From a virus, in IMG/VR virus record IMGVR_UViG_3300010412_000004, positions 15,013 to 79,012 of that record: DNA of 64,000 bases; one strand, given 5' to 3'. The translations under genes and the position numbers were made by a program. The number at the start of each line of letters is the position of its first letter. Positions within the stretch are counted from its first letter, which is position 1. Below, one piece after another: positions 4,509 to 49,700 of this stretch. The notes under the pieces were generated by a model. That model searched no databases. It was not told the DNA's origin and saw only the letters and a program-made list of their open reading frames with translations.

Positions 4509-7139
4509 TTAATAATTTAAATCATAAATTTTGTTACTCTTTTTACCTACCCATTCCTCTTCTTTCCTAATTACTTCTTCCTTCAAATACCAATTTCCAT
4601 TAATAGGAGTGAACTCAAACTCCATTTCAAGTGGTACTATTATCCATTTATATTTATCCCTTATATCTTTAGTTGCTACCTGTTCTATTGTTTCACATAC
4701 CATATCTTGTTCTGGTGGGTATGTGTCCGTTATCATACTATCATGTATTTGTCCAGGTTGTCCACTCTCCCATCCCTCTTCTATGGATATTTGGTCAATC
4801 TTATTACATGACCAAAGTAGACAATGGAATGCCGTACCTTGAATAGGGGTGTTGATTATGATATTTCTGGTTAAATATCCAGACCTTCTATGACCAAAGA
4901 AAGTTTCTACATATCCTGTTTGTAGATATTCTTTAATTACCTTTTCCTGCCATCTTTTAGTATATTTATATTTGTCCCAGTAGGCTTTTTCTACTTCTTT
5001 ACAATGATCCTCAAATCTAGGATATGTACCTATATTTTTTGACATTAGGTGGTCTAACATTGGCTGACCTTCTGTTGTGGTCAGTCCTCCTTCAACTACA
5101 TTTCTCCATAGATTTTCAGCACATGCCTTGTACCAAGATCCATAGAGTTGAGGGAATGTCCAATTATTTTTTCCATAGAATCTAACCTTAGAGTCCACAA
5201 GTTTTGGTAGAAGTAGAAATAATTCACAGCATACGTCTCTGTGCATATCCGTACCTTTTTGGTAAAGATATTTTATCCACTCAGGATCTTCTGTGTAGCA
5301 CCCAGCTATTCTAACTTCCATGGAGGAATAATCACTCTCTATAAATCTAAAATCCTCCGAGGGTTTAATTCCTGACCTGCAATATTCTTTTGCTTCCTCA
5401 TCTCTCACAGGGATATTGTGGATATTAGGATCACTTGAGCTACTTCTAAAAGTTCTAGCTGTTGTAAGATTATAAAAGGGATTGATTTTGCCCTCGAACT
5501 CCTCTTGGAAGAATTGATGGAGGTAGGTGTCTCGTATTTTTTTAAGTTTTCTCCACTTTAGTATTAGATTAGTAAAGTTTGAATTTATTGCAGAAAGGGA
5601 CTCTTCATCAGTAGAGTATCCCTTTTTAGTTTCTCTGGTAGGTTTGTATTTGAGTAGGTCATATAGAAGATATTGGAGGTCTTTGCTAGAGTTATGATTT
5701 ATAGGCTTTCCTGTGGAGGTTCTAAATTTATCAGCCTCGTTAGATTTGCTAATTAAACCATCTATCAAATCCATCCTTTTGGTTATGCCCTCTTTGATAT
5801 CATTTAGATAGTTTGTGTCTACATTAAATCCTCTTAGTTGCATATGGTTAAAAGTGTGAATGGCATCATGAAATAATTCGTAGGCCTCTAATAGATGAGG
5901 ATCTTTTTGTATTGTTGCCTTTTGTCTTAGGGTGAGGCTTTTACAAAATTTGGAATCCAGTCCACAATATAACATTGTTTCGTGAGAAGGAGCATCTTGA
6001 ATTTTGTTGTATTCCTCATTTTCTGTTTTAAGGAAAGGTTCAACTTCGTCTTCATAACCTTCTATTCCAAAGTTAATATAGGTTTGAAATTTGAGTCCTT
6101 TAGTTTCCTGTCTTGAGTCAATTATGTGGGAGGCTATCATTGAGCACCAGTCCACTCCTTTAGGATCACATCCAAGTATTACCTTAGACCAGAGCATTTC
6201 AAATGCCATATTGTGGGCACTCTTTTTTATTCTGTCTTCTTCCCAAATTTCTATCAGCATTTTAGTTATTATATTAAGCTCTTCATTTTTCCAATATCCT
6301 GGTTTTTGAAAAGGGAAGGAGAAGGTATCTGTATTAGTAGATATACTAGCATAGTATATTTTATGGTCAGGTTTGAATGGTTTTTTGCCTGTGGTTTCAT
6401 AATCAATCGCAATAGAAGGTTTATGTATCAATACGTTTCTAAGACTTTCCTCAACTTCATTTAGATTAGTGAGTACTCGAACTTTTTTTTCCATATTCTC
6501 ATAATCGGGAAATTTATCTATCTTACTCCATTCTACAGCGTTATCCAAATCTCTAAGATAAGTGGTCCAGAGGTTATCATTCTTTGAGTCCCTATAAGGA
6601 GCCGAAGGGTGATACAGAGGGATTATGTATGATTTAAATTTTTGATCTGGTATATTATATCCTCTCCATCTTGTGATGTTCCTTTTTTTGAATCTATACA
6701 TAAAAAAGGATTTGGTCGCCGCACTACCCATCAACCAGATGTATTTAGGTTTAGTATCCTCAATGGCTTTTAATACCCAGGGCCTACAGAATTTTATCTC
6801 CCTCTCTAATGGGGTTCTGTTCTTAGGTGGTCTACAGTTTATGGCATTAATCTTATTACAGTCCTCATGAAGATTAATTCCTCTTTCCTCGAGCAGGCGT
6901 TCAAAAAATTGTCCTACATCCCCTACGAGCTCGTCGTTTAGGGAGTCTTCAGTGGCTCCTGGACTTTCGGCTATTATTAATATATCTCTGTAACCTTTAC
7001 CACCCACAGGTATTTTAGGACTTTTTACATTCTTATTCAAACCACATTTATTGCAATCTGGTTCTCCAGGTTTATCGTAAAGTATTTGGTCCTTGCTCCT
7101 AGGAGCTTTTTCTCTTTTGAATTTGAAGAATGTTTTCAT
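4509..7139 (-). CDS. Family A DNA polymerase with N-terminal family-4 uracil-DNA-glycosylase-like domain and 3'-5' exonuclease
   Basis: UDG: CxxC, AESPG, NCRPPKNRTP, HPSA; exo: IDYETTG, AHNMAFE, YCGLDS; pol: RSSSSDPNIHNIP, SDYSSMEVR, FPQLYG, IHDS. Confidence 0.92.
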   Translation of the reverse strand: MKTFFKFKREKAPRSKDQILYDKPGEPDCNKCGLNKNVKSPKIPVGGKGYRDILIIAESPGATEDSLNDELVGDVGQFFERLLEERGINLHEDCNKINAINCRPPKNRTPLEREIKFCRPWVLKAIEDTKPKYIWLMGSAATKSFFMYRFKKRNITRWRGYNIPDQKFKSYIIPLYHPSAPYRDSKNDNLWTTYLRDLDNAVEWSKIDKFPDYENMEKKVRVLTNLNEVEESLRNVLIHKPSIAIDYETTGKKPFKPDHKIYYASISTNTDTFSFPFQKPGYWKNEELNIITKMLIEIWEEDRIKKSAHNMAFEMLWSKVILGCDPKGVDWCSMIASHIIDSRQETKGLKFQTYINFGIEGYEDEVEPFLKTENEEYNKIQDAPSHETMLYCGLDSKFCKSLTLRQKATIQKDPHLLEAYELFHDAIHTFNHMQLRGFNVDTNYLNDIKEGITKRMDLIDGLISKSNEADKFRTSTGKPINHNSSKDLQYLLYDLLKYKPTRETKKGYSTDEESLSAINSNFTNLILKWRKLKKIRDTYLHQFFQEEFEGKINPFYNLTTARTFRSSSSDPNIHNIPVRDEEAKEYCRSGIKPSEDFRFIESDYSSMEVRIAGCYTEDPEWIKYLYQKGTDMHRDVCCELFLLLPKLVDSKVRFYGKNNWTFPQLYGSWYKACAENLWRNVVEGGLTTTEGQPMLDHLMSKNIGTYPRFEDHCKEVEKAYWDKYKYTKRWQEKVIKEYLQTGYVETFFGHRRSGYLTRNIIINTPIQGTAFHCLLWSCNKIDQISIEEGWESGQPGQIHDSMITDTYPPEQDMVCETIEQVATKDIRDKYKWIIVPLEMEFEFTPINGNWYLKEEVIRKEEEWVGKKSNKIYDLNY

Positions 7140-8999: not shown

Positions 9000-9162
9000 G
9001 CATCTCCTTTACCTTCAATATATTTACCGCTCCTTTATTATGAAAAAAGGACACCAGGCGGTAATATCCTGGGTAGCCTTTCTTAAATACAAATTCTTTC
9101 ATCTTCTCCTCAGCTTTAAGATTGTTCATTTGAGGGAAGTTACCTGCTTGGTAGATTATCAT
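8944..9162 (-). CDS. Small protein, TGT/DpdA N-terminal-like mini-paralog D
   Basis: MIIYQAG...RLVSFF; ATGA-coupled to the transglycosylase stop. Confidence 0.6.
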   Translation of the reverse strand: MIIYQAGNFPQMNNLKAEEKMKEFVFKKGYPGYYRLVSFFHNKGAVNILKVKEMHDEKTFGPGDNRCSKSDK

Positions 9163-10406
9163 TTGAATAAATCAAATTTTTCTTGTTTATGTTGTTTGAA
9201 GGCCCAAGGCCACTTTGGCACACTATTTTGTAGGTCTATATAGTACATGATATTGAGCTCATCCCTGAGTTTGTAGCTGTTGGCGAGTCCTTTTTCTATT
9301 ACTATTTCTATTTCTCTGGATTTATCTCCCTTTTTGCCTTTAATCCATCTTTCATTCTCTCCAAGTGTATAGTCTCCTGGAACAACTTTGTATTCTGATT
9401 TTCCAAGTTTATATCCTTTTTTATTGAAGTAATCTAAGATGTATAACCGTTCCGCCTTGGAGTAGGTAAGAATATGTTTCCCTTCAATCTCCTTCTTTTG
9501 AGGAGATCTATCTGATACGGTAACATTGTGAGCATTTCTGGCATAATCAAATTTACCGCCTCTGGTTTTTGGTACACATACGATCCCATATTTACCAAAT
9601 TTAACCCAACTGGTACTGTCAACACTATACCAAGGGTACCTTGTAAGTAATCCTGCCGAAGTAACTGCAAATCCATGAACTTTAACTTTTGGCATTCCCA
9701 TGTCATCTGTGAGCATCTCACTCCATATCTTATCTAATCCTTGGTATATCACATTTTCTGGATTAGGTATAATTCCTCCTATGGCAATATAATCATGTCC
9801 CCTATCTAGATACATTTTTAACCATTCTGGGGAATTACCAAAGTGCCATACTGGAATAGGTTTTAGTCCTTTGCTTTCCATATATTGTTGGTTGTACCAA
9901 GTTTCTTCTGCATTATTGATCACATCTAGGTTAGCGTAGACTTCTATATAAGGGAGGTATTTTTTGATGAAAAGAACATACTGCCTTCTATATTTGATAT
10001 AATGATCAGATTTTAGATAAGAGTAATCATCATTCTTTCTGTCACCAAGGAAACTTCCCATATAGGTATGTGCTCCTCCCTTATGGGACCTCATGTGTTT
10101 ATTATAGAGGCTAGGTGCTCCACTATCTACGAATATTTTAAGGTCTTTTGGAGTAGTTACGGAGTCAGGTTTTAATTGAGATACTTCATTTTCTACCGTT
10201 CTTATTTTTTCTGGAACTGTTCCTTTTTCCACCATTACCCTCATATCATATTTTTGAATTGTTTTGATGTAATCTCCGGTTCTATCAAACCTTATACCAA
10301 GGTCTAGTACTCTTTTTACCTCATCAGTACTTGGCCAAATATTACTTCTCCCGGCGTGTTCTCTGGAGAATCCTCTAGGATATATCTTCATAGTGCTTTT
10401 ATACAA
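9159..10406 (-). CDS. TGT-fold base-exchange transglycosylase (DpdA-like, 7-deazaguanine insertion into DNA)
   Basis: FVDSGA, ANLDVI, PIPVWH, IAIGG, VHGFA, SVDSTSW: TGT barrel with catalytic Asp positions; clustered with folE/queD/queE. Confidence 0.78.
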   Translation of the reverse strand: MYKSTMKIYPRGFSREHAGRSNIWPSTDEVKRVLDLGIRFDRTGDYIKTIQKYDMRVMVEKGTVPEKIRTVENEVSQLKPDSVTTPKDLKIFVDSGAPSLYNKHMRSHKGGAHTYMGSFLGDRKNDDYSYLKSDHYIKYRRQYVLFIKKYLPYIEVYANLDVINNAEETWYNQQYMESKGLKPIPVWHFGNSPEWLKMYLDRGHDYIAIGGIIPNPENVIYQGLDKIWSEMLTDDMGMPKVKVHGFAVTSAGLLTRYPWYSVDSTSWVKFGKYGIVCVPKTRGGKFDYARNAHNVTVSDRSPQKKEIEGKHILTYSKAERLYILDYFNKKGYKLGKSEYKVVPGDYTLGENERWIKGKKGDKSREIEIVIEKGLANSYKLRDELNIMYYIDLQNSVPKWPWAFKQHKQEKFDLFK

Positions 10407-11410
10407 TCCAACATATTTTTAATGGCTTGACTTCCATCTAAAATCATTTTATTTTGTAGTTTATTAAGATATTTTCTAAAGTATTTCTCCTGTTTTTCAT
10501 CTCTTAATATATTAATGATTTTATCCACACACTCGTCAAAGGTTTTGAATCTAAAAGGTCGTGGATATAATTCTTCATAACTCAGTCTATTAGGAACTAA
10601 AGGGATACAACCAGACATCACCGATTCCTGCATAGCTATTCCCCAGGTTTCCTGTCTGGAAAAAGATACAGCTATTTTTGATGCCTGTAGTATATCATAA
10701 TACTTCTCTTTGGTATTACATATCAACTTAGTTTTTACAAAATCATAATGAGGGAAAATAGGTTTAATTGTCTTCTCTAAGGCGTCAAAATAGGAGGGTT
10801 CTTTTTCAGGATCTAGTCTATGAGGAAATACAATCATATTCATTTTATGGGTATCTACTAACCACTCTGGGTATATTGGCAGACCGGTAACTGCTATTTT
10901 ATGACTCAACACTTCTCTTTTTTCCATTAACAATCTTTTATGAAAATCAGTAGCCACAAAAATTTTGTCAACAAGAGTTGTCCATCCTTTTTCTATATGA
11001 GATGCCCAGTAGTCCATCCCCATTCTATGTAGAAAATCATGTTCATCATATGTGCCTGCATGAAGTATTCCACATATATTTATATCCAATCTTAAAGCAT
11101 CTCTAATGTAGGCCAACATTTCAATTCCAGGAAACCATAAATCATGAAATAAAAAGGTATCCTTATCTCTTATTACTCCCTTATCAATTAACCTACATAT
11201 TTCTCTGAGTTGGGCGGCCTTAAATAAGTTCGTTCCTATAATGTCAAGAAAAGATCCTTGCCGTATTTTGTGTGTAATAGGGTCAGGGTAAATAGTGATA
11301 TAATCTTTTTCTACCTCGAGCCCATTTGCTTGGAACTCTCTTGGGAACCATTTATTCCACTGAGCAGAGTATCTTTCCTCTAAACTTTCTATGGGCACAT
11401 TAATTATCAT
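10388..11410 (-). CDS. GT-B (GT4-like) glycosyltransferase in DNA-modification locus
   Basis: FPHRLDPEK, QETWGIAMQES (E-x7-E), PNRLSYEEL. Confidence 0.85.
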   Translation of the reverse strand: MIINVPIESLEERYSAQWNKWFPREFQANGLEVEKDYITIYPDPITHKIRQGSFLDIIGTNLFKAAQLREICRLIDKGVIRDKDTFLFHDLWFPGIEMLAYIRDALRLDINICGILHAGTYDEHDFLHRMGMDYWASHIEKGWTTLVDKIFVATDFHKRLLMEKREVLSHKIAVTGLPIYPEWLVDTHKMNMIVFPHRLDPEKEPSYFDALEKTIKPIFPHYDFVKTKLICNTKEKYYDILQASKIAVSFSRQETWGIAMQESVMSGCIPLVPNRLSYEELYPRPFRFKTFDECVDKIINILRDEKQEKYFRKYLNKLQNKMILDGSQAIKNMLDCIKAL

Positions 11411-11473
11411 AATTCGCCTCTTTGTTTCAATTAAACACTAAACTCATTGAAATTACAAGATAAATTTTTAGGT

Positions 11474-12835
11474 TTAAATTATTCTTAACCTAGCACATAT
11501 GGCATAGAATATAGCCGCATCTTCTATGGGGAGATGGTAATCTTTAGTATCCTCCTTAATTGCCTCAGCGATCTTCCATCCATTTCTATTGCTTAAATAT
11601 GTCATCATATATTCAATGTAGATACTTTTTAATTTATAAAGTTGAAACCATTTTATATCCTCCTCTTTTATGTCCCTTTTCGTATGTATTCTATCAAGCA
11701 AAAAAGAGTCAGGCATAAAACTTGGTATTAGTCTCATCGGTCTATTGTTTAGGGTATGTCCTTTGAGGTGAGAGGTTTCATAAATCTTTGTTCCATGATA
11801 TACCTGAAAGAATTGACCAAGACCTCCTTCGGTTCCATTTGTTTGTACTCTTCCATAAAGGTCATTCATTTTAAACCCATATTTAGATAAGAATTCCCCA
11901 GTGGTGTTTAAAGTCTTTAACGTTTCACCAGGATAGAATGTCATGGTTAACCAAAAGATGGGCACATCACACTTCTCAGCCAAATCTATGCATCGTGCGA
12001 CAGGTGACTTACCCATATCACTTCCTAGGTTCTTATCAGCAGTTTCCAGACCTACCTCGATTAATCTTACTCCTGCATCATGAAGTATTTTGGTACCATA
12101 CATAGAGATAAACCTATTTACTGTGGAAACTTCTCCTAAGGCTATGAAATTGAAGCCACCCATTTGGTATGCCCAATGTAATATGTTGTATGCCCTTTGA
12201 GTATCAAAAAAGAAATCTTCATCAGTGAAATGAATATTGTGGTATCCAAAATATTTACACCTTACGAGCATAGTGTGGATTTGTTCTAAATCCAAAACTA
12301 TTCTTTTTCTGTTTGTATTTACTGTGGAAGGACAGAAGGAGCAACCTCTTGGACATCCATATGAAGTAAAGAGAGGGTATACCTTTCCCGAATATTTTCT
12401 CAAGTGCATATCACAATCGCTCAACGTGAGGAATCTTAAATATTGATATGTATAAGGATAGTAGAACATTCCATCTTTAATCATATAATCTTCCACCTTA
12501 AACATATCTAAATCTAGACTTTGGATGAGGGGATAGTATCCAAAAAAGCTGGGTTTAACAGGTAGAAATTTATCAAGCATTTTGCAGAGTTCGATTTGAG
12601 GGTAGGACCATAGAGCTACTAAATAATTATTAGATTTTGGTAGGTCATCTATTCCTGCCATGGTGAAATTTTCTTCTAACCATACAATCTCTTCTTCTTT
12701 ATTCATTAGGTAATAATTGTAGAGTATATAAGGTAAGTAGCAAAAACTACCCCTATTGACTTCAGGAGAGGTTGGGTCAATTATTACTATATCCGCCTTA
12801 GTAGGGCGTATCCTCCCATTCTGCTCCATTTTCAT
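11474..12835 (-). CDS. Radical SAM enzyme with probable N-terminal cobalamin-binding domain (class B-like)
   Basis: TSYGCPRGCSFC (CxxxCxxC), FTDEDFF, VGLET, FYPGET; about 150-aa Rossmann-like N-terminus. Confidence 0.8.
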   Translation of the reverse strand: MKMEQNGRIRPTKADIVIIDPTSPEVNRGSFCYLPYILYNYYLMNKEEEIVWLEENFTMAGIDDLPKSNNYLVALWSYPQIELCKMLDKFLPVKPSFFGYYPLIQSLDLDMFKVEDYMIKDGMFYYPYTYQYLRFLTLSDCDMHLRKYSGKVYPLFTSYGCPRGCSFCPSTVNTNRKRIVLDLEQIHTMLVRCKYFGYHNIHFTDEDFFFDTQRAYNILHWAYQMGGFNFIALGEVSTVNRFISMYGTKILHDAGVRLIEVGLETADKNLGSDMGKSPVARCIDLAEKCDVPIFWLTMTFYPGETLKTLNTTGEFLSKYGFKMNDLYGRVQTNGTEGGLGQFFQVYHGTKIYETSHLKGHTLNNRPMRLIPSFMPDSFLLDRIHTKRDIKEEDIKWFQLYKLKSIYIEYMMTYLSNRNGWKIAEAIKEDTKDYHLPIEDAAIFYAICARLRII

Positions 12836-13312: not shown

Positions 13313-13894
13313 TTATCCTCCCATTATTAAGGACATTTCAATCCATCTCATGGCTTCATCACGAGCTTTAAGGTCATCCATTAAAACTCCACTCAAAGCT
13401 GAAGTTGTCATACCAGACCCACTTTGTTGTTTAACCCCTCTACATCTCATACAACCGTGGATAGCTCGCATGGCCACTATGGTACCATATGGTTTAATGT
13501 GACGGTCAAATTGTTTGATTACATCATCACATAATGTTTCCTGTAGTTGTGGTCTAAGGGAGTAATGATTGATTAGGCGTGCAGGTTTTGATGCACCTAC
13601 GAGAAGTTCTTTAGGTATGTATCCTAACCACGCTTTTCCTTCAAAGGGTAGAAAATGGTGGGAACACCATGATACAAAGTGTATGGTGTCGAACATGATA
13701 AGTTGCTTGTAATCTCGATCATTTGGGAAGGCTTTGAAATCTGTAAATTCCTTCCCTACATTCGCAAATATTTCTTGGTACATTCGCTCAAGTCTTTGGG
13801 GTGTTTCACGAAGGTTGGGGTCAGATAAATCCAACCCCAACTCTTCGCTGATGACTTTACTGAAGTACCAAGCCATCGACTGGCTCATGGTCAC
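13313..13894 (-). CDS. folE: GTP cyclohydrolase I
   Basis: ETPQR, SWCSHHFLPFEG, RPQLQE, HGCMRCRGV, TTS. Confidence 0.93.
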   Translation of the reverse strand: MTMSQSMAWYFSKVISEELGLDLSDPNLRETPQRLERMYQEIFANVGKEFTDFKAFPNDRDYKQLIMFDTIHFVSWCSHHFLPFEGKAWLGYIPKELLVGASKPARLINHYSLRPQLQETLCDDVIKQFDRHIKPYGTIVAMRAIHGCMRCRGVKQQSGSGMTTSALSGVLMDDLKARDEAMRWIEMSLIMGG

Positions 13895-14542: not shown

Positions 14543-15190
14543 TTATTTTTCTTCCTTTATATGTGCCAGTTTATGTAGCTGGAGATTTATCTGAACCATA
14601 TATAGTTTGTCTTTCCTCATCCAGGTCATTAGGTCATTTACGTTTAAACCAGGAGTTACTGGACTAAAGGCTATTCTTGGAGGACAATTTTTGGATTCCT
14701 CGTAAACATGTTTTACTATTGATCTCGCCTGTTTGTAATCGCTAAAATTGGTAATTACAAATTTAAGAAAGTCCTCCGCGAGCATACTGTCTAACCATTT
14801 ATTATCAAATTTCATACCTATTTTATAATCAACCACCCAGCAATCTACATATTCAAATATTTCCTCATTTTGTGGTAGTAATGATCCATTTGTCTCGATA
14901 GTGATATTATGATCATTACTTTTTAATTGTTTCAAAAGAGGTAAAAGGTCCTCCTGCAGTAAAGGCTCTCCTCCTGTGAGTGTAACTTCGATTACACCTA
15001 ATTTATCTACCTCATGGACAACCTGACTTACTCCCACTTCCTTACCACTATCTACACCCCAAGCATATTTAGTATCACAATAAGGACAACTGAGATTACA
15101 ACCAGCAAATCTAACAAAAGTAGCCCACACACCTTGACCAAGATAGTTTACTTCCCCTTGAATGGATGAAAAAATACTATATACTCTCAT
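14543..15190 (-). CDS. queE: 7-carboxy-7-deazaguanine synthase (radical SAM)
   Basis: FSSIQGE, FVRFAGCNLSCPYCDT, TGGEPL, ETNGS, LQLHK. Confidence 0.93.
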   Translation of the reverse strand: MRVYSIFSSIQGEVNYLGQGVWATFVRFAGCNLSCPYCDTKYAWGVDSGKEVGVSQVVHEVDKLGVIEVTLTGGEPLLQEDLLPLLKQLKSNDHNITIETNGSLLPQNEEIFEYVDCWVVDYKIGMKFDNKWLDSMLAEDFLKFVITNFSDYKQARSIVKHVYEESKNCPPRIAFSPVTPGLNVNDLMTWMRKDKLYMVQINLQLHKLAHIKEEK

Positions 15191-15564
15191 TTGAAATTTA
15201 CCTCCATATAAGAGTTTTCAGTTTCCCATAATCTTAATCTGGTTATACAACTGATATTTATCACTTTAGGAAGGTCACCATAAAGTCTTTCGGTTATCCA
15301 CATGAGTATGTTCTCACCTGTAGGATTTTCTATCTTTGTGTTTATACAGGAGTGATCAAGTTGGTCTATAATCATTTCTTGTACTGCCTTTTTGAGGTTA
15401 GAAAGGTCGGTAACCATTCCCTTCTCAGGAGTCTCTGTTTTCTGTATCCCCCCTTCCACCTCTACCTCTAATTTGTAGCTGTGCCCATGTAACTCTTTAC
15501 ATTTACCTTCATGGTGTGGTAGATGGTGTGCCGCCTCAAATCTAAAAATTCTTCCTATTTTCAT
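15187..15564 (-). CDS. queD: 6-carboxy-5,6,7,8-tetrahydropterin synthase
   Basis: FEAAH, CKELHGHSY, LDH, PTGENI, LWET. Confidence 0.93.
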   Translation of the reverse strand: MKIGRIFRFEAAHHLPHHEGKCKELHGHSYKLEVEVEGGIQKTETPEKGMVTDLSNLKKAVQEMIIDQLDHSCINTKIENPTGENILMWITERLYGDLPKVINISCITRLRLWETENSYMEVNFK

Positions 15565-23974: not shown

Positions 23975-24439
23975 TTATTTCTCGACGGTGATTCGACCTT
24001 TGTCGTCGATTTTGATCTTCCAGTTCTTGTTGGCACGAAGGTCAGCGATCGTTCCAGATACAGCGGCCTTATTTTTGTCAACAGGCCATTCCTCTGGATT
24101 CTTTTCGTGCAGGGCTTCAGCCAGTGTAGCGGTGTCCCAGATACCTTCTTGGATCGCCTCGATGATCAGTGATCTCCTTGAAGGCATTCCGTTTTTGGTG
24201 CGTGTCCCCATTTCTTCTGCTGGGGTGGCTTCACCTTTTTCCTCTACAGGATCCTCCACAACCTCCTCGGCGTTTTCTGAGGTGTTGATTTTGCAGAACT
24301 GATCATGGAGTTTTTCGATGAGGTCCTTCTTGAGGTAGCGTGTGGGTGGACGTGTTTGGAACGTCTTTTCATAGAGTTCCTGGAGCGTAGGTACCTTCTG
24401 TCCCTGAAGGTGTTTGAGGTAGTCTTGATTTGTCATCAT
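23975..24439 (-). CDS. Hypothetical DNA-binding-like protein (paralog of 32585-33031 C-terminal domain)
   Basis: SRRSLIIE...NKxAVxGTxxDLxxNK; start refined by RBS. Confidence 0.65.
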   Translation of the reverse strand: MMTNQDYLKHLQGQKVPTLQELYEKTFQTRPPTRYLKKDLIEKLHDQFCKINTSENAEEVVEDPVEEKGEATPAEEMGTRTKNGMPSRRSLIIEAIQEGIWDTATLAEALHEKNPEEWPVDKNKAAVSGTIADLRANKNWKIKIDDKGRITVEK

Positions 24440-24500
24440 TTTACCCTCCCTTCTCATTGTTAATGGGTTAATAAAGTTGCTTTCCTCTGCCTACAGTTAT

Positions 24501-31794: not shown

Positions 31795-32118
31795 ATGTGA
31801 CGACCACCTGAGTATGGAAATGGTGGTCTGGCATACGAAACTTGAATCAATTTATCCAGCCCACCTTCCACTCATACCATTCCAATTCGAAATACTGGAA
31901 CCACGAAGGGACGAGAAGGGTTGGGTCAGCCCAAACCTGACCTTCCCGTTGATGATATGGGAGACCGACCAGGTGTACCGAACCTTCCGCATCGCTCAGT
32001 TTGACCAGACCGCCCCATATGTAGCCAGACCATACCAGCTCAACCCATACCGAATCATATTTATTAAATATTATAAATTTACTAACTATTAGTAATTTAT
32101 TAAGTATGTTGTATTTAC

Positions 32119-32205
32119 TTACTAAATAGTATTTAGTAAATATCATTTAGTAAATACTTGTATATTTACTAAATATTATAAAATTTAATAAATGTTATTT
32201 AGTAA
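32119..32205. repeat. ATTTAGTAA(A) repeat cluster, left
   Basis: Five copies in both orientations at 32119, 32131, 32145, 32165, 32197. Confidence 0.75.
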
Positions 32206-32230
32206 TTAAATAAATTAAAATTACTTAATT

Positions 32231-32355
32231 TATGACAAAAAAAGTCATACTTTTTGACAAAAAATGTCAAAGCATTTATGTAATAATAACAAGTATTTAA
32301 CTAAAATTAAATACTTATTTAGAAAATAAATTGCCTCTTTTGACAAAAAAAGTAA
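32231..32355. promoter_or_regulatory. Operator-like palindromes TGAC-N7-GTCA
   Basis: 32231-32249, 32253-32271 and a partial copy near 32339-32355. Confidence 0.55.
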
Positions 32356-32584
32356 TTAACTTATTTATAGCCATAAAATTATTTTTAAAATAATATGTAA
32401 TTATCTTAAATACTTATACAATTTAAGACTTTGTTTTGTACTTTGTGCATACTTTTTGCAATAGTTATTAGCATGTCAAAGTCAACAGCTATATTAATAT
32501 TGCTCGCTTGCTATAGTGCTTTCGTGCTTGCATTACTTGACTTCTTTACAGTCTACGCGAAGTAGACAGAAAGTGAAGGCAACT

Positions 32585-33031
32585 ATGTTAAGACACGAAA
32601 ACACAATACAGAAAGTCTATGCAATGTATATTGACAAAGCAACGACTTTTAATGAAAAAGAAATTGCTTTACGCAAGTTACATAAACTTTGTGAAAAACA
32701 CAAAGTCAACTTGCATAGACTTGTTAGTGACTGTACTTTAAATATTAACTATGCAGACAAAGTACAGTCAAAAGCTACTTCAAATGCTATGTATGAAGCA
32801 GACAAAGCAAAAAGCAGACGTAGTTTAATAATTGAAATGTTACGTCAAAACATACATAGTAAGGACAGTATTGCAGAAGTACTGTCTGAAGTCTACGAAA
32901 TTGCAGACTTCAAGACAAATAAGAAAGCAGTTGCAGGGACTTTGTATGACTTGCAGACTAACAAAGCATACTTTGACTATAAAGTATGTAAAGACGACAG
33001 ACTTTCTTGCAATTTCAATGTGACTGTCTAA
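32585..33031 (+). CDS. Isolated gene: DUF2786-like N-terminus plus domain paralogous to 23975-24439
   Basis: ATG 32585 after GAAGG; NEKEIALRKLHKLCEKH; SRRSLIIE..NKKAVAGTLYDL; followed by terminator. Confidence 0.75.
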   Translation: MLRHENTIQKVYAMYIDKATTFNEKEIALRKLHKLCEKHKVNLHRLVSDCTLNINYADKVQSKATSNAMYEADKAKSRRSLIIEMLRQNIHSKDSIAEVLSEVYEIADFKTNKKAVAGTLYDLQTNKAYFDYKVCKDDRLSCNFNVTV

Positions 33032-33063
33032 TTGTTAAAAGTAGCACGAAAGCACTTAGCATA

Positions 33064-33104
33064 AAAAAATAAAACACTTTGAAGTCTAAAGTGTTTTATT
33101 TTTT
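33064..33104. terminator. Intrinsic (possibly bidirectional) terminator
   Basis: AAAAAATAAAACACTTT-loop-AAAGTGTTTTATTTTTT. Confidence 0.7.
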
Positions 33105-33144
33105 GCTTGTTTACTGAAGCAAATTTATTTAATAAATAAATAAT

Positions 33145-33209
33145 ATTTAGTAAGTATATAATATTTAGTAAACCCCCCTCAATTTAGTTTATGAAGACCA
33201 TTTAGTAAA
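33145..33209. repeat. ATTTAGTAA(A) repeat cluster, right
   Basis: Copies at 33145, 33163, 33200. Confidence 0.7.
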
Positions 33210-33373: not shown

Positions 33374-33973
33374 ATGCGAGATACCGAGATGTATAAGCCA
33401 GTCCCAACCAAAGGCACTACCAAAGAGGGACTTAAGATTATTATGTTTGATGCCGTACAAAACTGCAGGGCTGAACAATGTCCAATATTCAATGACTGCA
33501 AATACCTCAAGACCGGAAGGTGCACGGTTGAGATTAATTACCTCCGCGCCGTCTTTGACTCCGTTAACGATATGGTAGGGAAGGACACTACACAGGGAGT
33601 CCTCAATAAGGTCACCCTCCACCTTCTACCCCTATTCCATCAGCTCATCCGTTTCCAAATCTACGCCTACTCCGTGCAAGATGTCTGCTACACTACTACA
33701 AGAGGGCAGATAAGGGCTCATCCAATATTCAAAGAGATAAGGGACACCCTCAGGTCCATTGAGAACACCCAAGCCTCAATGGGGATTGATGGAGAATACA
33801 TCCGAGCCTTGGGCTCCCTCGGGAGTGGGAGAAAGGGAAGGAGAGCCATTGAGGATGCCGTAAAGTATGGGGAGGACGGATTCAGGGAGAGGTGGCAGAA
33901 AGAGAACTTTGATGGTTCGGTGTTTCCTGAGGGAAGGGCTACCCATCCAAAGCGTTCCGCGAGAGGAGGATAA
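33374..33973 (+). CDS. Putative terminase small subunit
   Basis: Position upstream of TerL; RGQIRAHPIFKEIR resembles TerS K.HP motif; Cys-rich N-terminus. Confidence 0.55.
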   Translation: MRDTEMYKPVPTKGTTKEGLKIIMFDAVQNCRAEQCPIFNDCKYLKTGRCTVEINYLRAVFDSVNDMVGKDTTQGVLNKVTLHLLPLFHQLIRFQIYAYSVQDVCYTTTRGQIRAHPIFKEIRDTLRSIENTQASMGIDGEYIRALGSLGSGRKGRRAIEDAVKYGEDGFRERWQKENFDGSVFPEGRATHPKRSARGG

Positions 33974-34333: not shown

Positions 34334-36211
34334 ATGTTACAACGTGCAAATAGGTTTGAGGCAAGAAAGCCAATCCGTTTTACAGACGGTGCGGAGGGGA
34401 TGATAAAGTGGGTGGAGGATTTTGTCTACCTCCCCATCTATCCCTATGTTAGTGAAGAGGATGAGATAGCACCAGTGGAGGCTTGGGTAAGGGTAGCTGA
34501 TCTCCCAAAAGATCCTAATCCTAAGACTGGTCGCTCATATTGGAATATGTGGGATAACCAAAAGGAGATCCTCCGCAGAGCCCTTGTAATGGAGGGGGGT
34601 AGGTTCATATATAGGTTGATAATTCTATGCTGGATGCGTGGGGAGGGAAAGAGTTTGTTGGCCTGCCTCATTCAGCTTTGGAAGTTCTTCAACTGGACTC
34701 GCCAGAAAATTATGCTTGGAGCTAACAGTAAAGATCAGGTAAAGTTCGTTCATTATGATATCATGAGGGATATCATTCTAAACAGCCCCGAATTGATAGG
34801 GGTGGTCGGGGAGAGAAACGTCCAGGAGAAAGAGATTAGGATCTTGGATAGGAACACTGGAGGGGTGGACTGTTTAATCAGGAGCATATCCACCGCCAGT
34901 GGTATTGTAAGTAACATCACCGGATACACTTTCTCTGAAATGTTTGCGATGAAGAACCCGACCTTCTTCGTGCAACTTGATGGAAGTATCAGAAATATAC
35001 CAAACGCTCTTGGAGTGATTGACAGCACGGTATCTGATAAAGTTCACATATTGCATCAAATGTATAAGAACTGGGTGAAGGGGAAACTCAGGACCTGTTT
35101 CTACAGCTATAGATACACAAAGGAGGCTGATCCTAATAGGTACTGGAACCCTAATATGGATGATGACCAACTCAATGATTACCAAGTAAAGTTCCCATTT
35201 GGAGAATTTGATAGATACTTTTTGAACCTGTGGGAGGCTGGAACAGTTAGAGTATTTAGTGAAGTTGATGTGAGAGCCACTGGGTATATTGGAGCGGAGG
35301 GATCCTATTTTAATCACAACTCAGTGAAAAATCTGTTGGAGGAGATCGTCAAAAAAGAGGAGGTTTTGAGTGATACTAAAGGAAAAGGGTGGGTGGAGAG
35401 TAGCTTAAATGAAAGGAAAAGAATAGATGAGTTAGAGAAATCGCTCATCCCTGTGGAGAACTTATACAGTCTTAAATCAGGAATGGACCGCCAATTCTAT
35501 TGCCCATTAGAGGATTTAATAAAAGTTGGAGATTTATTCGATACTGATTGGGCTATATTGTTTGGTTTAGATATGGGTGACCCTACCGCCATTAGAGGAC
35601 AGGCTAGGAGCATTTTAGTAGGGTTGGCTAAGGGATTGATAGGTTCACGTACCAATCCTTGGGCGGATACACTCAAAATACCTGACCTTAAGTTCATTTA
35701 TCTGCTTATATTATTCACTAACGTGGAGAATCACAGCACAGATATGATTAAGAAGATAGTTGATGAGGCTAATGAGGAATATGATGGAATAGATACGTTC
35801 TGTGCAGAAAGATATGGAACGTGGGATATGACTCAATGGTGTGAGGAAAGGAGCATCAACTTCGAGCCTACTTATCCTAATTATGGACGCCAAAGGGATG
35901 CCTTCAAAGAGGCCTATACCGTGGTAAAGGAGGGAAGGTTTAAAACTCCTGATATACCTGTGGCGGGATCTAAAACAGATAATTTATTCCTAGAGGAATT
36001 AAGTATATTTGATCATGATCCTATTAAGAAATGGTTTGGTAGCCCTGAAAAAGAAGAGAAAGGAGGGACACAGGACGATTCGGTATATAGCTTAGGATGG
36101 TGTATGTATGGAGGACGTATGTTAGGACCTCAGGACTTTAGAGTTCGAAAAAATGTATCCAGCTTTGGAATGTTCATACCTGCCACTGGATTAGTCGGAA
36201 AATATACTTAA
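34334..36211 (+). CDS. Terminase large subunit
   Basis: Q-motif NQKEIL, Walker A MRGEGKS, ANSKDQ, nuclease GLDMG and QDDSVYS; precedes portal. Confidence 0.88.
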   Translation: MLQRANRFEARKPIRFTDGAEGMIKWVEDFVYLPIYPYVSEEDEIAPVEAWVRVADLPKDPNPKTGRSYWNMWDNQKEILRRALVMEGGRFIYRLIILCWMRGEGKSLLACLIQLWKFFNWTRQKIMLGANSKDQVKFVHYDIMRDIILNSPELIGVVGERNVQEKEIRILDRNTGGVDCLIRSISTASGIVSNITGYTFSEMFAMKNPTFFVQLDGSIRNIPNALGVIDSTVSDKVHILHQMYKNWVKGKLRTCFYSYRYTKEADPNRYWNPNMDDDQLNDYQVKFPFGEFDRYFLNLWEAGTVRVFSEVDVRATGYIGAEGSYFNHNSVKNLLEEIVKKEEVLSDTKGKGWVESSLNERKRIDELEKSLIPVENLYSLKSGMDRQFYCPLEDLIKVGDLFDTDWAILFGLDMGDPTAIRGQARSILVGLAKGLIGSRTNPWADTLKIPDLKFIYLLILFTNVENHSTDMIKKIVDEANEEYDGIDTFCAERYGTWDMTQWCEERSINFEPTYPNYGRQRDAFKEAYTVVKEGRFKTPDIPVAGSKTDNLFLEELSIFDHDPIKKWFGSPEKEEKGGTQDDSVYSLGWCMYGGRMLGPQDFRVRKNVSSFGMFIPATGLVGKYT

Positions 36212-46770: not shown

Positions 46771-49700
46771 ATGCCAGATAGGTCTCTTAATCTGGGTACT
46801 ATATTCACTGCTAATATTGATGACTTTATCGCCAAAGTAAGAACCTTAAGAAGTACTCTTGGAAGTCTCAATGAAGCATACAGTAGGGCGGGATCATCAA
46901 GTGAAAAAGCCTTTAAACAAACCGCCGCAGGAGTAGATAAGGTTGGAACTTCTGTAAAAAGAAGTTCAGGAAATATACTTGAATATAGTAAACAGATAGG
47001 AAAGGTTGAAGGAGCCTGGAAACGTGTATTGGCTGCCATGAAGGTCACCGCATCATATGGCCTGGCAGCCTCTGCCATTTTTAGCCTAGTTCAGGCATTT
47101 AAGGCAGGTGCCAAGGAAATCGTAGATTACGATCAGGCTCTTAAGAACTTGCAAGCCATCACTCGTTCTACTAATGCTGAAGTAACAGGGATGGGTGAAA
47201 CAATAAAGAGTGTGGCCTCCGAAACTAAATTCTCCACTGGTGAAGTAGCCGAGGGAATGGTTTTATTAGGTCAAGCAGGTTTCTCCGCTACTGAGTCGAT
47301 GCAGAGTATGCAATCAGTAGCTGACCTAGCCACAGGAACTTTAACAGATTTAGGAACAGCCTCTGATTTAGTTACTACTACCATTAGAGCATTTGGTCTT
47401 AGCACTATTGAGTCTTCTAGAGTAGCTGATGTTATGGCCAATGCTGTTAACCGATCTAAACTAACCATAGACAAATTAAGAACTGCTTTTAACTATGTTG
47501 GTGCGGCGGCGTCTCAAACTGGTCTATCGCTGGAGGAAACTGCCGCATCAATGATGGTTCTTGCCAATAATGGTTTGAGAGCTAGTACGATAGGTACAGG
47601 TCTCAGACAAGTTCTCGCCAGACTTCTTGCACCCAACAGAAACCTCAGAGAAGAATTTGAAGCTCAAGGGATTGCCTTAGAGACGGTCAATCCTAAATTG
47701 GTAGGTTACCAAACTGCCATGAAGAATATGACCAGTGTTATATGGGATAATGCGAGAGGTGTGGTAGATATGACCAAAGCCTACCGCCTGTTTGGTCTTA
47801 GAGGTGCTCAGGCCGCTGCCGTGTTAGCAAGAGCCTTCGCAGGAACAGGTCCTGGTAGTTTTGATGATATGCTCAACAAGACCTATGAGATAGGATCTGC
47901 GGCAGATATGGCAGGTACGCAGATGGAAGGTCTTGGTGTTAAAATTAAGAACTTAGCAGATAGGGCTAAGTTGATAGCTGTGGCCTTTGGTGAAGGAGGA
48001 GCCATAAGTGCCCTTAAGGTATTTATTGATGCCTTAAGAGGTTTAGCCAAGGTGATGGCTGATTTCTTGAGTACTGATTTAGGTAGAATCATTACTTCCT
48101 TTGGTGTGTGGTCTGTTACTATTGGACTAACCACCAGAGCCATAGTAGCATTAATTCCTGTGATGAAGAGTTTAGCCGCCGTAATCTCCTTAACTCGTAT
48201 AGCCACATTTGCCGTAGAACTTATAAAGGTTTCTCAGGCTGTAGGTTTAGTTAGGGCGGCTATGTGGGCTTTACAAGGAGCCATGGTAGGAGCATTAGGT
48301 CCTATTGCTCTTGTAGCTGTGACACTTGGTGGTATTATTACGGCTATAAGATGGTATATGGGGTCTACCCAAAGAGCCATAGATTCTACTGTTAAGTTGA
48401 CTCAGGCTTCGGCCACAGCGGCGGATACGCTCAAGGTATATGAGGCCTCCCTTAGAGATATTGCATCTAAAAAAGAGCAGGGCATTGATGTTACTCGAGA
48501 ACATGCCGCTCAAATTAGGAGGTTAGTGGTAGCTTATGGACCTCTTAAAGGGAAGGTAGACGAATCAACTGAGTCATTAGAGAAGAATATTGAGGCGGTT
48601 AGGAAAGCATATGGAGAGGAAGTACAAAAAAGATTAGAACAAAATACTCGTTTAGTTGAGTTATATGCACAAAGGTTGAAGGAAGTAGAACTTAGGTATG
48701 GAATTCTTAAGGTTTCTCAAGATATTTTAGGGACTTCAGTAGATTGGCTGATAGATAAGTATATCAGATTGTTAAATCTATTGGCCAGAGTTGTAACATT
48801 TTTTCCAAGGTTAATACTGAGTATTCTTTCTTACGTTCCTGTTGTAGGCACCGCAATTGGTAAATTAAGTGAGGAGATAGATGAATTATTAAGTAATTGG
48901 GGGGATAAAGTAAGGGTGATTGGTAAGGATACCAAAGAGTTTAAAGGAGTAATGGAGGAGCAAACCAATGCCTTTGTTGAGATGGCTAAAATTCTTAAGT
49001 CTGAAAAAGGAGAATCTATTGAGGGGATTACCAAACGATTACAAGCGATGGGAGCCACTACAGATCAGATAGATGCAGTTACCTCCGCTCTTACTGCTCA
49101 AGGTGTTGCCGCGGAGGAAGCTCGAATTAAAATGGAATCTGAGGTAGCTAACCTTCCTAATATGTTCAAGGATTATTATGATAAATTGGATGCGAGACAA
49201 AAGGCGGCTTTTGCAGATACTCTATCTAATATAGATAAGGAAATTGCGGCTTTTAAGAAAAAGGCGGCAGAGATAAAAGGTATGGGTGTATCAGAGTGGG
49301 CGAGTATTGAAGCTATTAGGGCAGAGCATTTGGCTAAATTTATTGATGATCAGAATAAAGAGAAGATGGAGTTTGAGGAGTTAGCCAAACTTAAGATAGA
49401 TATTATTAGTGGACAAAAGGATAAAATTGAGGAAGAGTATAATGAGATAACTCGAGTTAGAATGAATCAATATCTTAGAGAAACAGGGTTAGCTCAAGAG
49501 AATAAAGACCAATTATTGAAATTAGAACAAAAATTTAATGCAGATTTAGAGACTGAAAGAACGGCGGCCTCTCTTCGTATGCAAGGAGTAGAGGTAGCGA
49601 TTGCTCGGCAAACAGAACTACTTAAAATGGAGTTGGCTAAGAAAACAGCCGAAGAGCAGAAAGCCTTTATGAAGGATGTATTAAGTGGTCTTCAGCAGGA

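Follow-up and report, generated by a model that had tools for sequence, protein, structure and literature searches.

The phage carries a 1.1-kb island in which the words GG/CC, GAT/ATC and GAG/CTC are nearly absent, a depletion that is real and lies far beyond chance. The ban is under purifying selection, recurs in distant relatives, belongs to a place in the genome and co-occurs with a 7-deazaguanine (dpd) module. From this we infer DpdA as the reader of the banned words, an unmodified state of the island and a reason why that state matters; that the island avoids the contexts modified by the phage's own DpdA has, in our judgment, an even chance of being correct.

Word composition of the island

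All coordinates refer to the window, i.e., the whole 64-kb stretch of DNA analyzed. Between 32051 and 33173, GG/CC was found 6 times versus 36 expected (GG 4, CC 2), GAT/ATC 3 times versus approximately 40 (GAT 0, ATC 3) and GAG/CTC twice versus approximately 13.5 (GAG 0, CTC 2), counts that bear out the depletion over about 1.1 kb claimed in a preliminary description. The island itself (32053-33171) measures 1119 nt at 25% GC, the GC content falling from approximately 40% on entering it. The GG occurrences were located at 32863, at 32936/32937 (an overlapping GGG) and at 32578, within the Shine-Dalgarno sequence GAAGG; CC occurs at 32334 and 32371. As described earlier, the depleted run ends abruptly, at CCCCCC (33173-33178). 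Banned words tolerated in the island were GGC (three times), GGAC (twice), ATC (three times) and CTC (twice). Enrichment of 2-3 fold was found for GC, GCA/TGC and GAC/GTC in 32051-33173, and GC and GT contexts were up 2-3.6 fold within the island.

For these words the island is the most extreme stretch of the whole 79-kb genome. Its GG+CC observed/expected ratio (o/e) of 0.04-0.24 was the lowest among all sliding windows (genome mean 1.25, SD 0.19-0.25; z about −5). The rest of the genome, previously called rich in the missing words, is only moderately so (o/e 1.31 for GG/CC, 1.51 for GAG/CTC and 1.08 for GAT/ATC). The trinucleotide profile of the island correlated negatively with that of the bulk genome (rho −0.45), versus +0.75 ± 0.13 for control windows.

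The island gene and its paralogue

The island encodes a small protein, a paralogue of which is present in the same window:
32585-33031, plus strand: coding sequence (CDS) of 148 amino acids, modeled as a helical hairpin at the N terminus and a winged helix at the C terminus; no Pro or Trp and a single Gly
23975-24457, minus strand: paralogue of normal composition, part of the leftward early module

The CDS is free of CC, GAT, ATC, GAG and CTC and has GG only at 32863 and 32936-32938, exactly as first reported; the computed expectation for GG+CC, 24.5, is higher than the earlier estimate of about 20. The reported residue bias was likewise confirmed at codon level. All 10 Asp codons are GAC (bulk usage of GAC 23%), all nine Glu codons are GAA, and the codons ATC, CTC, TCC, ACC, GCC and AGG are absent. 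Pro, Gly and Trp together occur once versus 17.8 expected (p = 1e-7), the single Gly being the family-invariant one of an A-V-x-G-T motif. When the CDS was recoded synonymously 20,000 times at the codon usage of the bulk genome, 43.7 ± 5.5 banned words resulted (minimum 23), compared with 3 observed.

The paralogue contains 61 GG+CC versus 57 expected, 24 GAT+ATC, 17 GAG+CTC, eight Pro, eight Gly and three Trp. Because this normal copy lies within the same window, the ban belongs to the place and not to the protein. A constraint at DNA level that deprives a foldable and functional protein of three amino acids is rarely seen, and here the normal paralogue provides a natural control. In the closest homologues (P0002-P0004, at protein level), Pro and Trp are absent and Gly is found only at or beside the conserved site. 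The wider family of 42 sequences is bimodal: 17 have at most two Pro/Gly/Trp residues, and in the others these make up 2-13%.

An AF2 model built from 4 sequences was poor (pLDDT 49), whereas 40 sequences gave pLDDT 89, with helices at 78-88, 93-103 and 109-126 and strands at 131-134 and 140-143. The top Foldseek matches in the PDB (Fur/PerR, RbkR, FoxP, MarR and histone H1) were weak (E 0.3-1; TM 0.3-0.35 over the whole model). As far as these best fold matches go, residues 78-143 may be described as winged-helix-like: the model has three helices and a beta hairpin, an arrangement that may resemble those of Fur/PerR, MarR, RbkR and forkhead proteins. No family was found in Pfam, PHROGs, NCBIfam or PDB, and the PDB sequence search gave no meaningful match. 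The N-terminal hairpin (residues 8-42) resembles DUF2786 (PF10979, E 0.015), membership of which was rejected since the score of 15.7 bits is below the Pfam gathering cut-off of 23.9. Scans for the 148-aa family in viral contigs and JGI metagenome contigs gave no match that passed confirmation, and GenBank phages had no match to the island DNA, TerL, the 148-aa protein or its paralogue.

Organization of the cassette

The other elements of the island and the adjoining packaging genes are as follows:
32059-32206, no strand: left array of near-palindromic ATTTAsTAAAT, 14-18 nt spacing (repeat analysis)
32230-32356, plus strand: 19-nt element in three copies containing TGACAAAAAA, two with exact TTGACA (repeat family)
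32515-32528, plus strand: 14-nt leader segment, perfect complement of 33043-33056
32575-32579, plus strand: Shine-Dalgarno sequence GAAGG, 5 nt 5′ of the ATG, containing one of the four tolerated GG
33043-33056, plus strand: 14-nt segment of the 3′ trailer, partner of 32515-32528
33064-33104, plus strand: perfect 17-bp hairpin followed by a T run, free of GG/CC (−18 kcal/mol, z −4.8)
33127-33209, no strand: right array of ATTTAsTAAAT, its last copy (33200) just beyond the depleted stretch
33374-33973, plus strand: conserved open reading frame (ORF) directly 5′ of TerL, kept in all six relatives; by position only, the small terminase
34334-36211, plus strand: large terminase (TerL), used as anchor for finding related loci

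The five exact ATTTAsTAAAT copies of the window all lie inside the two arrays, which form an imperfect inverted repeat (32060-32106 versus 33126-33172, 85% complementary). The 19-nt elements look promoter-like or operator-like, TTGACA at 32254-32259 being followed after 17 nt by TATGTA. The leader and trailer segments could form a stem enclosing the mRNA, and the hairpin is likely an intrinsic terminator. A scan of the island for consensus promoters and terminators gave nothing above chance, and Rfam and tRNA scans in and around it found nothing. The arrangement is best explained as a self-contained transcription unit, with a putative TTGACA leader, ribosome site, predicted winged-helix gene and terminator, bracketed by the arrays. 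The island adjoins the packaging genes, at the point where the leftward early arm meets the rightward late arm. Assembled contigs from four public runs, two of which gave almost no cover, span it on both sides, as they also would in a terminally redundant genome. Runs containing the phage come from marine sediment, mangrove or soil.

Conservation in related phages

At least 18 loci from related phages, deeply divergent with TerL identities of 47-56%, have a stretch of 0.4-1.7 kb containing 0-3 GG/CC, situated 1-3.5 kb upstream of TerL. In each of five whole genomes there is exactly one such GG/CC-free stretch, the next longest run being 60-120 nt. In the relatives taken together, trinucleotides containing GG/CC had an o/e of 0.01-0.05, versus 0.90 for GAT/ATC and 1.02 for GAG/CTC. 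The initial proposal that the missing words are modification contexts is supported in part: all banned words, here and in relatives, have a purine after G, but GAT/ATC and GAG/CTC are depleted in this lineage alone. Lineages differ in dialect: the ban is on GG, GGW or GGT, with GAT and GAG added in this lineage alone, and all of these are of the form G-purine-x.

The islands of L052 and L053 differ by 123 substitutions, random placement of which would create 12.6 ± 3.2 new GG/CC; two were observed, showing that purifying selection maintains the ban in place. The island of L045 obeys it at 41% GC. Because the cargo belongs to three protein families, not linkable by profile-profile comparison, and lies in either orientation, the conserved thing is a rule for the DNA. 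Distant relatives keep a ban of this kind; therefore something in the infected cell, most probably the guanine-modifying enzyme of the phage, reads the banned words. Literature searches did not yield a description of such word-free islands. A second TerL scan gave more islands but did not enlarge the set of informative whole genomes, G011 and G012 being incomplete at the relevant end.

The 7-deazaguanine module

The preliminary description had assumed a guanine-modification system of the phage, and its genes are present in the window:
9159-10406, minus strand: DpdA-like guanine transglycosylase, candidate reader of the banned words (PHROG 887, E 1e-37)
13313-13894, minus strand: GTP cyclohydrolase, FolE-like (PHROG match, 4e-46)
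14543-15190, minus strand: QueE-like radical SAM enzyme (PHROG match, 5e-40)
15187-15564, minus strand: QueD-like enzyme (PHROG match, 1e-19)

With the DpdA-like protein, tblastn matched 241 phage records. The best annotated match was a '7-deazaguanosine inserting enzyme' (E 1e-29), with 32% identity over 62% of the length to annotated DpdAs of Queuovirinae. Its nearest ESM Atlas cluster is named 'queuine tRNA-ribosyltransferase family' (PF23859 on 29% of members, TM 0.79-0.85). Pfam TGT (PF01702) and DpdA (PF23859) gave no match in a six-frame genome search and a protein scan; for PF23859 this negative is weak, as control genomes were not matched either. The PDB contains no sequence relative. 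Judged by sequence, the protein is a distant member of the DpdA system. QueC had no match among the locus proteins scanned, and the three main Pfam families of DNA methyltransferases are absent. The locus also encodes a further radical SAM enzyme, of the B12 type, and a glycosyltransferase-like protein, which together suggest an end product different from that of known systems.

Related phages with and without the locus were compared in six whole genomes. The island and dpdA/folE/queD/queE are found together in 5/5 and both are absent in 1/1; this is a comparison of five lineages with one, with a single DpdA-free genome (Fisher p about 0.17). The four genes occur together in G001, G002, G003 and G005, and are absent from the complete, island-free genome G004. 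Of the ORFs of at least 70 aa in the genome of the present phage, those found in all five island-bearing genomes and absent from G004 are dpdA, folE, queE, queD and one of 78 aa. Pairwise identity among the DpdAs of the lineages sharing the GG ban is only 30-45%, and among these five deeply diverged proteins no link between sequence and dialect was found.

Proposed mechanism

Avoidance of the phage's own modification is the best reading because the island and the module co-occur and because the banned words have the G-purine-x form of known DpdA targets. In short, the DpdA-type transglycosylase would replace guanine by a 7-deazaguanine derivative in short contexts, predicted to be G before G, GAT and GAG in this phage and GG, GGW or GGT in relatives, GG being predicted for G001-G003 and GGA/GGT for G005. 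Up to approximately 44% of the guanines outside the island would lie in modifiable contexts. As the banned words are missing from it, the cassette is proposed to remain unmodified in the virion and for the whole of the infection. Its cargo appears to be a second copy of an early DNA-binding protein, free of Pro, Gly and Trp except for one Gly, so that its likely purpose would be expression or protein binding independent of the modification state. We know of no evidence that 7-deazaguanine templates block transcription, a point against any need for an unmodified cassette.

If the banned words are indeed DpdA targets, the specificity of DpdA-type enzymes could be deduced for many uncultured lineages from their genomes, the prediction here being G before G, GAT and GAG, or approximately 44% of all G. 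Some ordinary DNA, one stretch or more, would then be indispensable to hypermodifying phages, implying an infection step that modified DNA cannot perform. Whether or not DpdA is the reader, a two-letter DNA step is discriminated by something in infected cells; we know of no system that does so.

Alternative explanations

A reader other than DpdA is a real, though unlikely, alternative: a host or phage nuclease, a defense system or a DNA-marking enzyme of 2-3 nt specificity would act on the first-entering DNA before a protective early function is established, with the arrays acting as sites of entry arrest or binding and the 148-aa product as a pre-early factor. The site is suited to this, since it lies beside the packaging genes at the junction of early and late arms and a genome end could lie there; phage CAjan, moreover, has a DpdA and no island. 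We know of no nuclease or defense system with GG/CC-level specificity, however; the differences between dialects keep to a G-purine-x pattern, as would suit DpdA; G004, which has no island, also has no dpdA; and the island gene varies in orientation among relatives. Bracketing arrays recall the repeats at the injection stop region of T5, a phage whose DNA is open to attack by EcoRI and CRISPR only in the part that enters first (10.1101/866236).

In a further, rather doubtful 'stealth leader' reading, never-modified DNA would enter first and be held by the arrays, and its protein would license the modified genome for entry or transcription, or disarm a modification-sensing defense; the DpdA codes of the lineages (GG; GGW; GGT; GGN+GAT+GAG) would be readable from sequence. 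Word-free islands would then be a general route to the specificity of phage DNA-modifying enzymes.

It is improbable that the modifying enzyme cannot reach the stretch, e.g., owing to a packaging or replication complex on the arrays, and that words in need of protection were purged under attack by restriction enzymes or Cas effectors. In three lineages, putative binding-site arrays do stand at either side, and the island is situated just upstream of the terminase genes, but a 1-kb pac or origin region around an expressed gene would be unusual. The whole clade strongly avoids 6-bp palindromes, which indicates high restriction pressure; restriction sites measure 4-8 bp, however, so a total purge of GG that costs the protein three amino acids would be overkill. 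On base composition alone, palindromes with banned words seemed not to be avoided in DpdA-bearing genomes, with an o/e of 1.10 here versus 0.09 in the DpdA-free G004, a contrast that is no independent evidence because it was lost after di- and trinucleotide correction.

Avoidance of CRISPR PAMs (NGG for Cas9, CC for type I-F) in an early anti-defense cassette is very improbable. Although GG and CC are common PAMs and the layout resembles acr-aca units (strong leader, small gene, DNA-binding protein), one cut anywhere kills the phage, leaving a local PAM-free patch without obvious benefit. Furthermore, the GGW, GGT and GAT+GAG dialects correspond to no known PAM sets, and AAG/CTT, the type I-E PAM, is overrepresented in the island (o/e 1.77). 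Also in favor of this explanation, dPreQ0 shields DNA from Cas9 in vitro (PMC10484667).

Finally, recent import from a donor of like composition, named at the outset as a refutation, or a by-product of low GC and protein make-up has practically no chance of being correct: despite the drop from approximately 40% to 25% GC and a trinucleotide profile unlike that of the genome, no known genome-wide signature comes near an o/e of 0.01-0.17 for a dinucleotide, synonymous recodings never came as low as the counts observed, and import is ruled out by the ban being held upstream of the terminase in the at least 18 related contigs, despite TerL identities of about 50% and cargo that is unrelated, by its persistence against substitutions (L052/L053) and at 41% GC, and by the normal paralogue.

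Comparison with known systems

To our knowledge, DpdA specificity has been determined by experiment for only two phages. CAjan DpdA modifies GA and GGC and partly GGT, sites with GC and GT being cut (PMC7544227), and the motif of phage iggy is GA (PMC10484667). In common with them, the present phage has a DpdA homologue, here beside FolE, QueD and QueE, and its banned words show the G-purine-x form of the known targets; its own motif, in contrast, is deduced only from the words missing in the island. For neither CAjan nor iggy has a motif-free island been described. In the CAjan genome no GA- or GGC-free island was found (longest GA/TC-free run 81 nt), so that possession of a DpdA is not sufficient for an island.

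Classical avoidance of restriction sites or PAMs resembles the present case in that selection removes short words read by a DNA-reading enzyme. It is, however, genome-wide, directed at 4-8 bp and partial, whereas the island ban is local (about 1 kb), concerns words of 2-3 nt, is nearly total and, unlike known site avoidance, alters the set of amino acids used (Pro and Trp absent, Gly nearly so). The island does not fit this class, the ban being confined to 1.1 kb and GG/CC elsewhere having an o/e of 1.31.

Natural T5 is without EcoRI sites in its first-step-transfer region. This region is likened to the island by being a short segment at a possible genome end, with small early genes and direct and inverted repeats at its borders. 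The likeness in repeat-array borders appears to be a resemblance only. T5 avoids specific 6-bp sites and not a dinucleotide, and its region measures approximately 10 kb inside a terminal repeat; stepwise entry and terminal position are features of T5, whereas the island is known from contigs alone. Only the first-step-transfer segment of T5 is exposed to restriction and CRISPR (10.1101/866236). Regarding the borders themselves, the islands of L058 and L012 are flanked by other arrays with a periodicity of approximately 18 nt, and one 18-nt unit of the right array described here is polymorphic among environmental contigs.

Word depletion in the island

The depletion of GG/CC, GAT/ATC and GAG/CTC (the banned words) claimed in the preliminary description was real. 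Counts for 32053-33171 were as follows.

GG + CC: observed 4 + 2 (6), expected 36
GAT + ATC: observed 0 + 3 (3), expected about 39
GAG + CTC: observed 0 + 2 (2), expected 13.6

A recount of the 148-aa coding sequence (32585-33031) agreed with that description: CC, GAT, ATC, GAG and CTC were absent, GG occurred only at 32863 and 32936/7, Asp was always encoded by GAC (10/10; share in the rest of the genome, hereafter bulk, 23%) and Glu by GAA (9/9). The depleted run stopped at CCCCCC (33173), the abrupt end reported earlier, and the proposed sliding-window check placed the lowest GG+CC observed/expected ratio (o/e) of the whole genome in the island (0.04-0.24 versus 1.25 ± 0.2). The symmetric di- and trinucleotide profile of the island was the mirror of the genome's (Spearman rho against bulk, −0.45; control windows, +0.75 ± 0.13), with o/e in island and bulk of 0.17 and 1.31 for GG/CC, 2.09 and 0.70 for GC, 3.25 and 0.71 for GCA/TGC, and 2.81 and 0.70 for GAC/GTC. 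Banned contexts held 44% of bulk G versus 4.5% of island G; the sequence after an island G was C, T, AA or AC. In 20,000 synonymous recodings the coding sequence contained 43.7 ± 5.5 banned words (minimum 23) versus 3 observed, and the protein contained one Pro, Gly or Trp residue versus 17.8 expected (p = 1e-7).

Islands in related phages

A TerL search of IMG/VR yielded 80 related loci (L-numbers; 47-56% identity); no TerL relatives were found among GenBank phages. At least 18 of the 80 carried a GG/CC-poor stretch (0-3 GG/CC in 0.4-1.7 kb) located 1-3.5 kb upstream of TerL, and a second scan added the islands of L131, L123 and L137. Examples are listed below.

L012: 1187 nt, GG/CC expected 48
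L074: 1017 nt, GG/CC expected 72
L045: first 962 nt, about 41% GC, GG/CC expected 86

Within the relatives' pooled islands, every GG/CC-containing trinucleotide had an o/e of 0.01-0.05, while GAT/ATC (0.90) and GAG/CTC (1.02) were normal; of the banned set first described, the GG/CC part is common to the relatives and the remainder is not. Narrower dialects (the word set avoided by a lineage's island) were seen in L034 and L039/L042, missing only GGA/TCC and GGT/ACC, and in L036 and L049, missing only GGT/ACC. Among the lineages seen, only that of the window added GAT and GAG, with GG slightly relaxed. Each of the five whole genomes with an island had a single stretch of this kind; the GG/CC-free run next in length was 60-120 nt. 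Islands carried one ORF each of 109-193 aa, in either orientation (L045: none above 70 aa), belonging to three families among which comparison gave no link.

The islands of L052 and L053 are 80% identical, and their 123 substitutions created 2 new GG/CC versus 12.6 ± 3.2 by random placement; the GG/CC ban is under purifying selection. Because the relatives' islands are conserved and the ban is kept under such selection, import from a biased donor, raised beforehand as a possible refutation, was excluded. An artefact as the cause of the depletion was likewise rejected. The observation of a word ban is confirmed, and it extends to a clade of phages in which the ban is conserved and under selection. 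Literature searches found no published description of such islands.

At L045/L130, positions 1-1668 are GG/CC-free over at least 1.67 kb (41% GC, no ORF >70 aa) up to the contig end that cuts the stretch, which may be non-coding or hold several very small genes. At least seven contigs (L007, L032, L036, L045, L049, L055, L117) end in or at the edge of their own island, which suggests assembly breaks caused by flanking repeats, strain-level cargo variation or a physical genome end. Two relatives without a GG/CC-free island have about 1 kb free of AGC/GCT upstream of TerL (L046/L126, 2915-3885; L060/L135, 2678-3819; 16-20 expected), which may be the same phenomenon with another word and another reader.

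The 148-aa protein and its paralogue

Profile searching of 1.8 billion representatives gave a family of 39 members. Close homologues (69-72% identity) share the MLRHENTI start and likewise lack Pro and Trp. Pro/Gly/Trp content of the family was bimodal, with two residues or fewer in 17 of 42 sequences and 2-13% in the others; in the 17, what remained was usually the invariant Gly of A-V-x-G-T alone. AlphaFold modelling from 40 sequences (pLDDT 89) gave a helical hairpin at the N-terminus and a three-helix-plus-wing domain at the C-terminus; the top fold matches were winged-helix DNA binders, all weak. Run on the window, this profile identified a paralogue.

23975-24457, (−): island-gene paralogue, E 5e-27, 39% identical across the C-terminal 76 residues

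Its composition was ordinary (GG+CC 61 versus 57 expected, GAT+ATC 24, GAG+CTC 17; Pro 8, Gly 8, Trp 3), and the word ban is therefore a property of location, not of protein family. The paralogue lies immediately 5′ of a DUF932 gene and is preceded by a promoter-like site, TTGACT-17-TATATT. Weaker possible counterparts were found in relatives' genomes: one in G003 at 48071-48823, matching the second island family (E 2e-4), and one in G006 at 57053-57685, matching the first (E 0.002). More generally, the genes of islands may be Pro/Gly/Trp-free copies of early genes.

DpdA module and possible reader

The genome encodes a homologue of the guanine transglycosylase DpdA (PHROG 887, 1e-37), which matched annotated DpdA of 241 phages by tblastn (best E 1e-29), grouped with viral DpdA clusters in the ESM Atlas, and gave no match to the Pfam TGT and DpdA profiles. 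FolE, QueD and QueE genes adjoin dpdA, as do a glycosyltransferase-like gene and one for a B12-type radical SAM enzyme. Searches of the genome for methyltransferases of the C5, N4/N6 and Dam types found none. At 10388-12835 (−), the glycosyltransferase-like gene overlaps dpdA and is followed by the radical SAM gene; the former had a match in G001 only and the latter in none of the compared relatives. In this lineage the 7-deazaguanine may be decorated further, and the extra GAT/GAG ban could be linked to that.

Six whole genomes, about equally distant mutually (TerL 48-58%, DpdA 30-45% identity), were compared. The dpd module and island occurred together in five of them, four with GG dialects (G000, the genome of the window, and G001, G002 and G003) and one with the GGW dialect (G005); neither occurred in the complete genome G004, the single DpdA-free lineage behind this association. 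In an all-ORF comparison, the sole genes matching the island's presence pattern were dpdA, folE, queE, queD and a 78-aa ORF of no known function.

Every banned word starts with G and then a purine. The DpdA of phage CAjan modifies GA and GGC, and GGT partly, GC- and GT-containing sites being cut (PMC7544227); that of phage iggy modifies GA only (PMC10484667). Our best reading, poised evenly between right and wrong, is that the cassette avoids the contexts targeted by the phage's own DpdA; the dialect of this lineage would be GGN, GAT and GAG. A 'boot island' purpose for such a cassette is a plausible conjecture. CAjan, although it too has DpdA, lacks a motif-free island: no GA- or GGC-free island was found in its genome, the longest GA/TC-free run being 81 nt. 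Avoidance imposed by some unknown reader of the DNA that enters first is a lesser possibility, an unmodifiable, protein-covered region is rather improbable, and PAM avoidance very much so.

Across the clade (whole genomes G000-G006), 6-bp palindromes were very strongly avoided, with median o/e of 0.38 for the genome of the window, 0.31 for G001 and 0.08 for G004 (non-palindromic 6-mers, 0.85-0.91); many, e.g. AAGCTT, GTCGAC, GCTAGC and AGCGCT, had zero copies in 79 kb. For palindromes containing GG, GAT or GAG, o/e was 0.09 in the DpdA-free G004 versus 1.10 in the window's genome, in a test dependent on bulk word bias. This contrast, a single comparison between phages of possibly different hosts, fits protection by modification.

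Organization and occurrence of the cassette

The island lies exactly at the early/late divergence point of the 79,012-bp IMG/VR record (completeness 91%), where local GC falls to 25-28%. The window covers positions 15013-79012 of this record.

To about 31.5 kb, (−): leftward replication/early genes (gp32-like protein, clamp loader, UDG-PolA fusion, sliding clamp, helicases, primase)
32059-32206: left array of the near-palindromic 10-11 nt motif ATTTAsTAAAT
33127-33209: right array of the same motif
From 33.4 kb, (+): rightward packaging/structural genes (conserved ORF, TerL, portal, major capsid)

In the family A DNA polymerase (4509-7139, −), residues 51-197 make up a uracil-DNA glycosylase-superfamily domain, N-terminal to the 3′-5′ exonuclease and polymerase domains.

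The two arrays, one on each side of the island, are imperfect inverted repeats of each other over 47-63 nt and contain all five exact motif copies of the 64-kb window; arrays of other motifs, with about 18-nt periodicity, flank the L058 and L012 islands. Three 19-nt elements with TGACAAAAAA occur in the island, two including an exact TTGACA; because a consensus promoter scan was not above chance, we only infer promoter function for them. The 148-aa ORF is preceded by a ribosome site, GAAGG; downstream of it lies a perfectly paired 17-bp hairpin, followed by a T run (−18 kcal/mol, z −4.8). Leader (32515-32528) and trailer (33043-33056) are perfectly complementary over 14 nt, and their pairing could form a stem around the whole coding region, for processing or stabilising.

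Seven studies provided the public metagenome runs with the phage (contigs only), which came from marine sediment, mangrove, soil and sludge. At 33117-33171, one 18-nt unit of the right flanking array was absent from environmental contigs of soil and sludge runs; the remainder of the island was identical among runs of several habitats.
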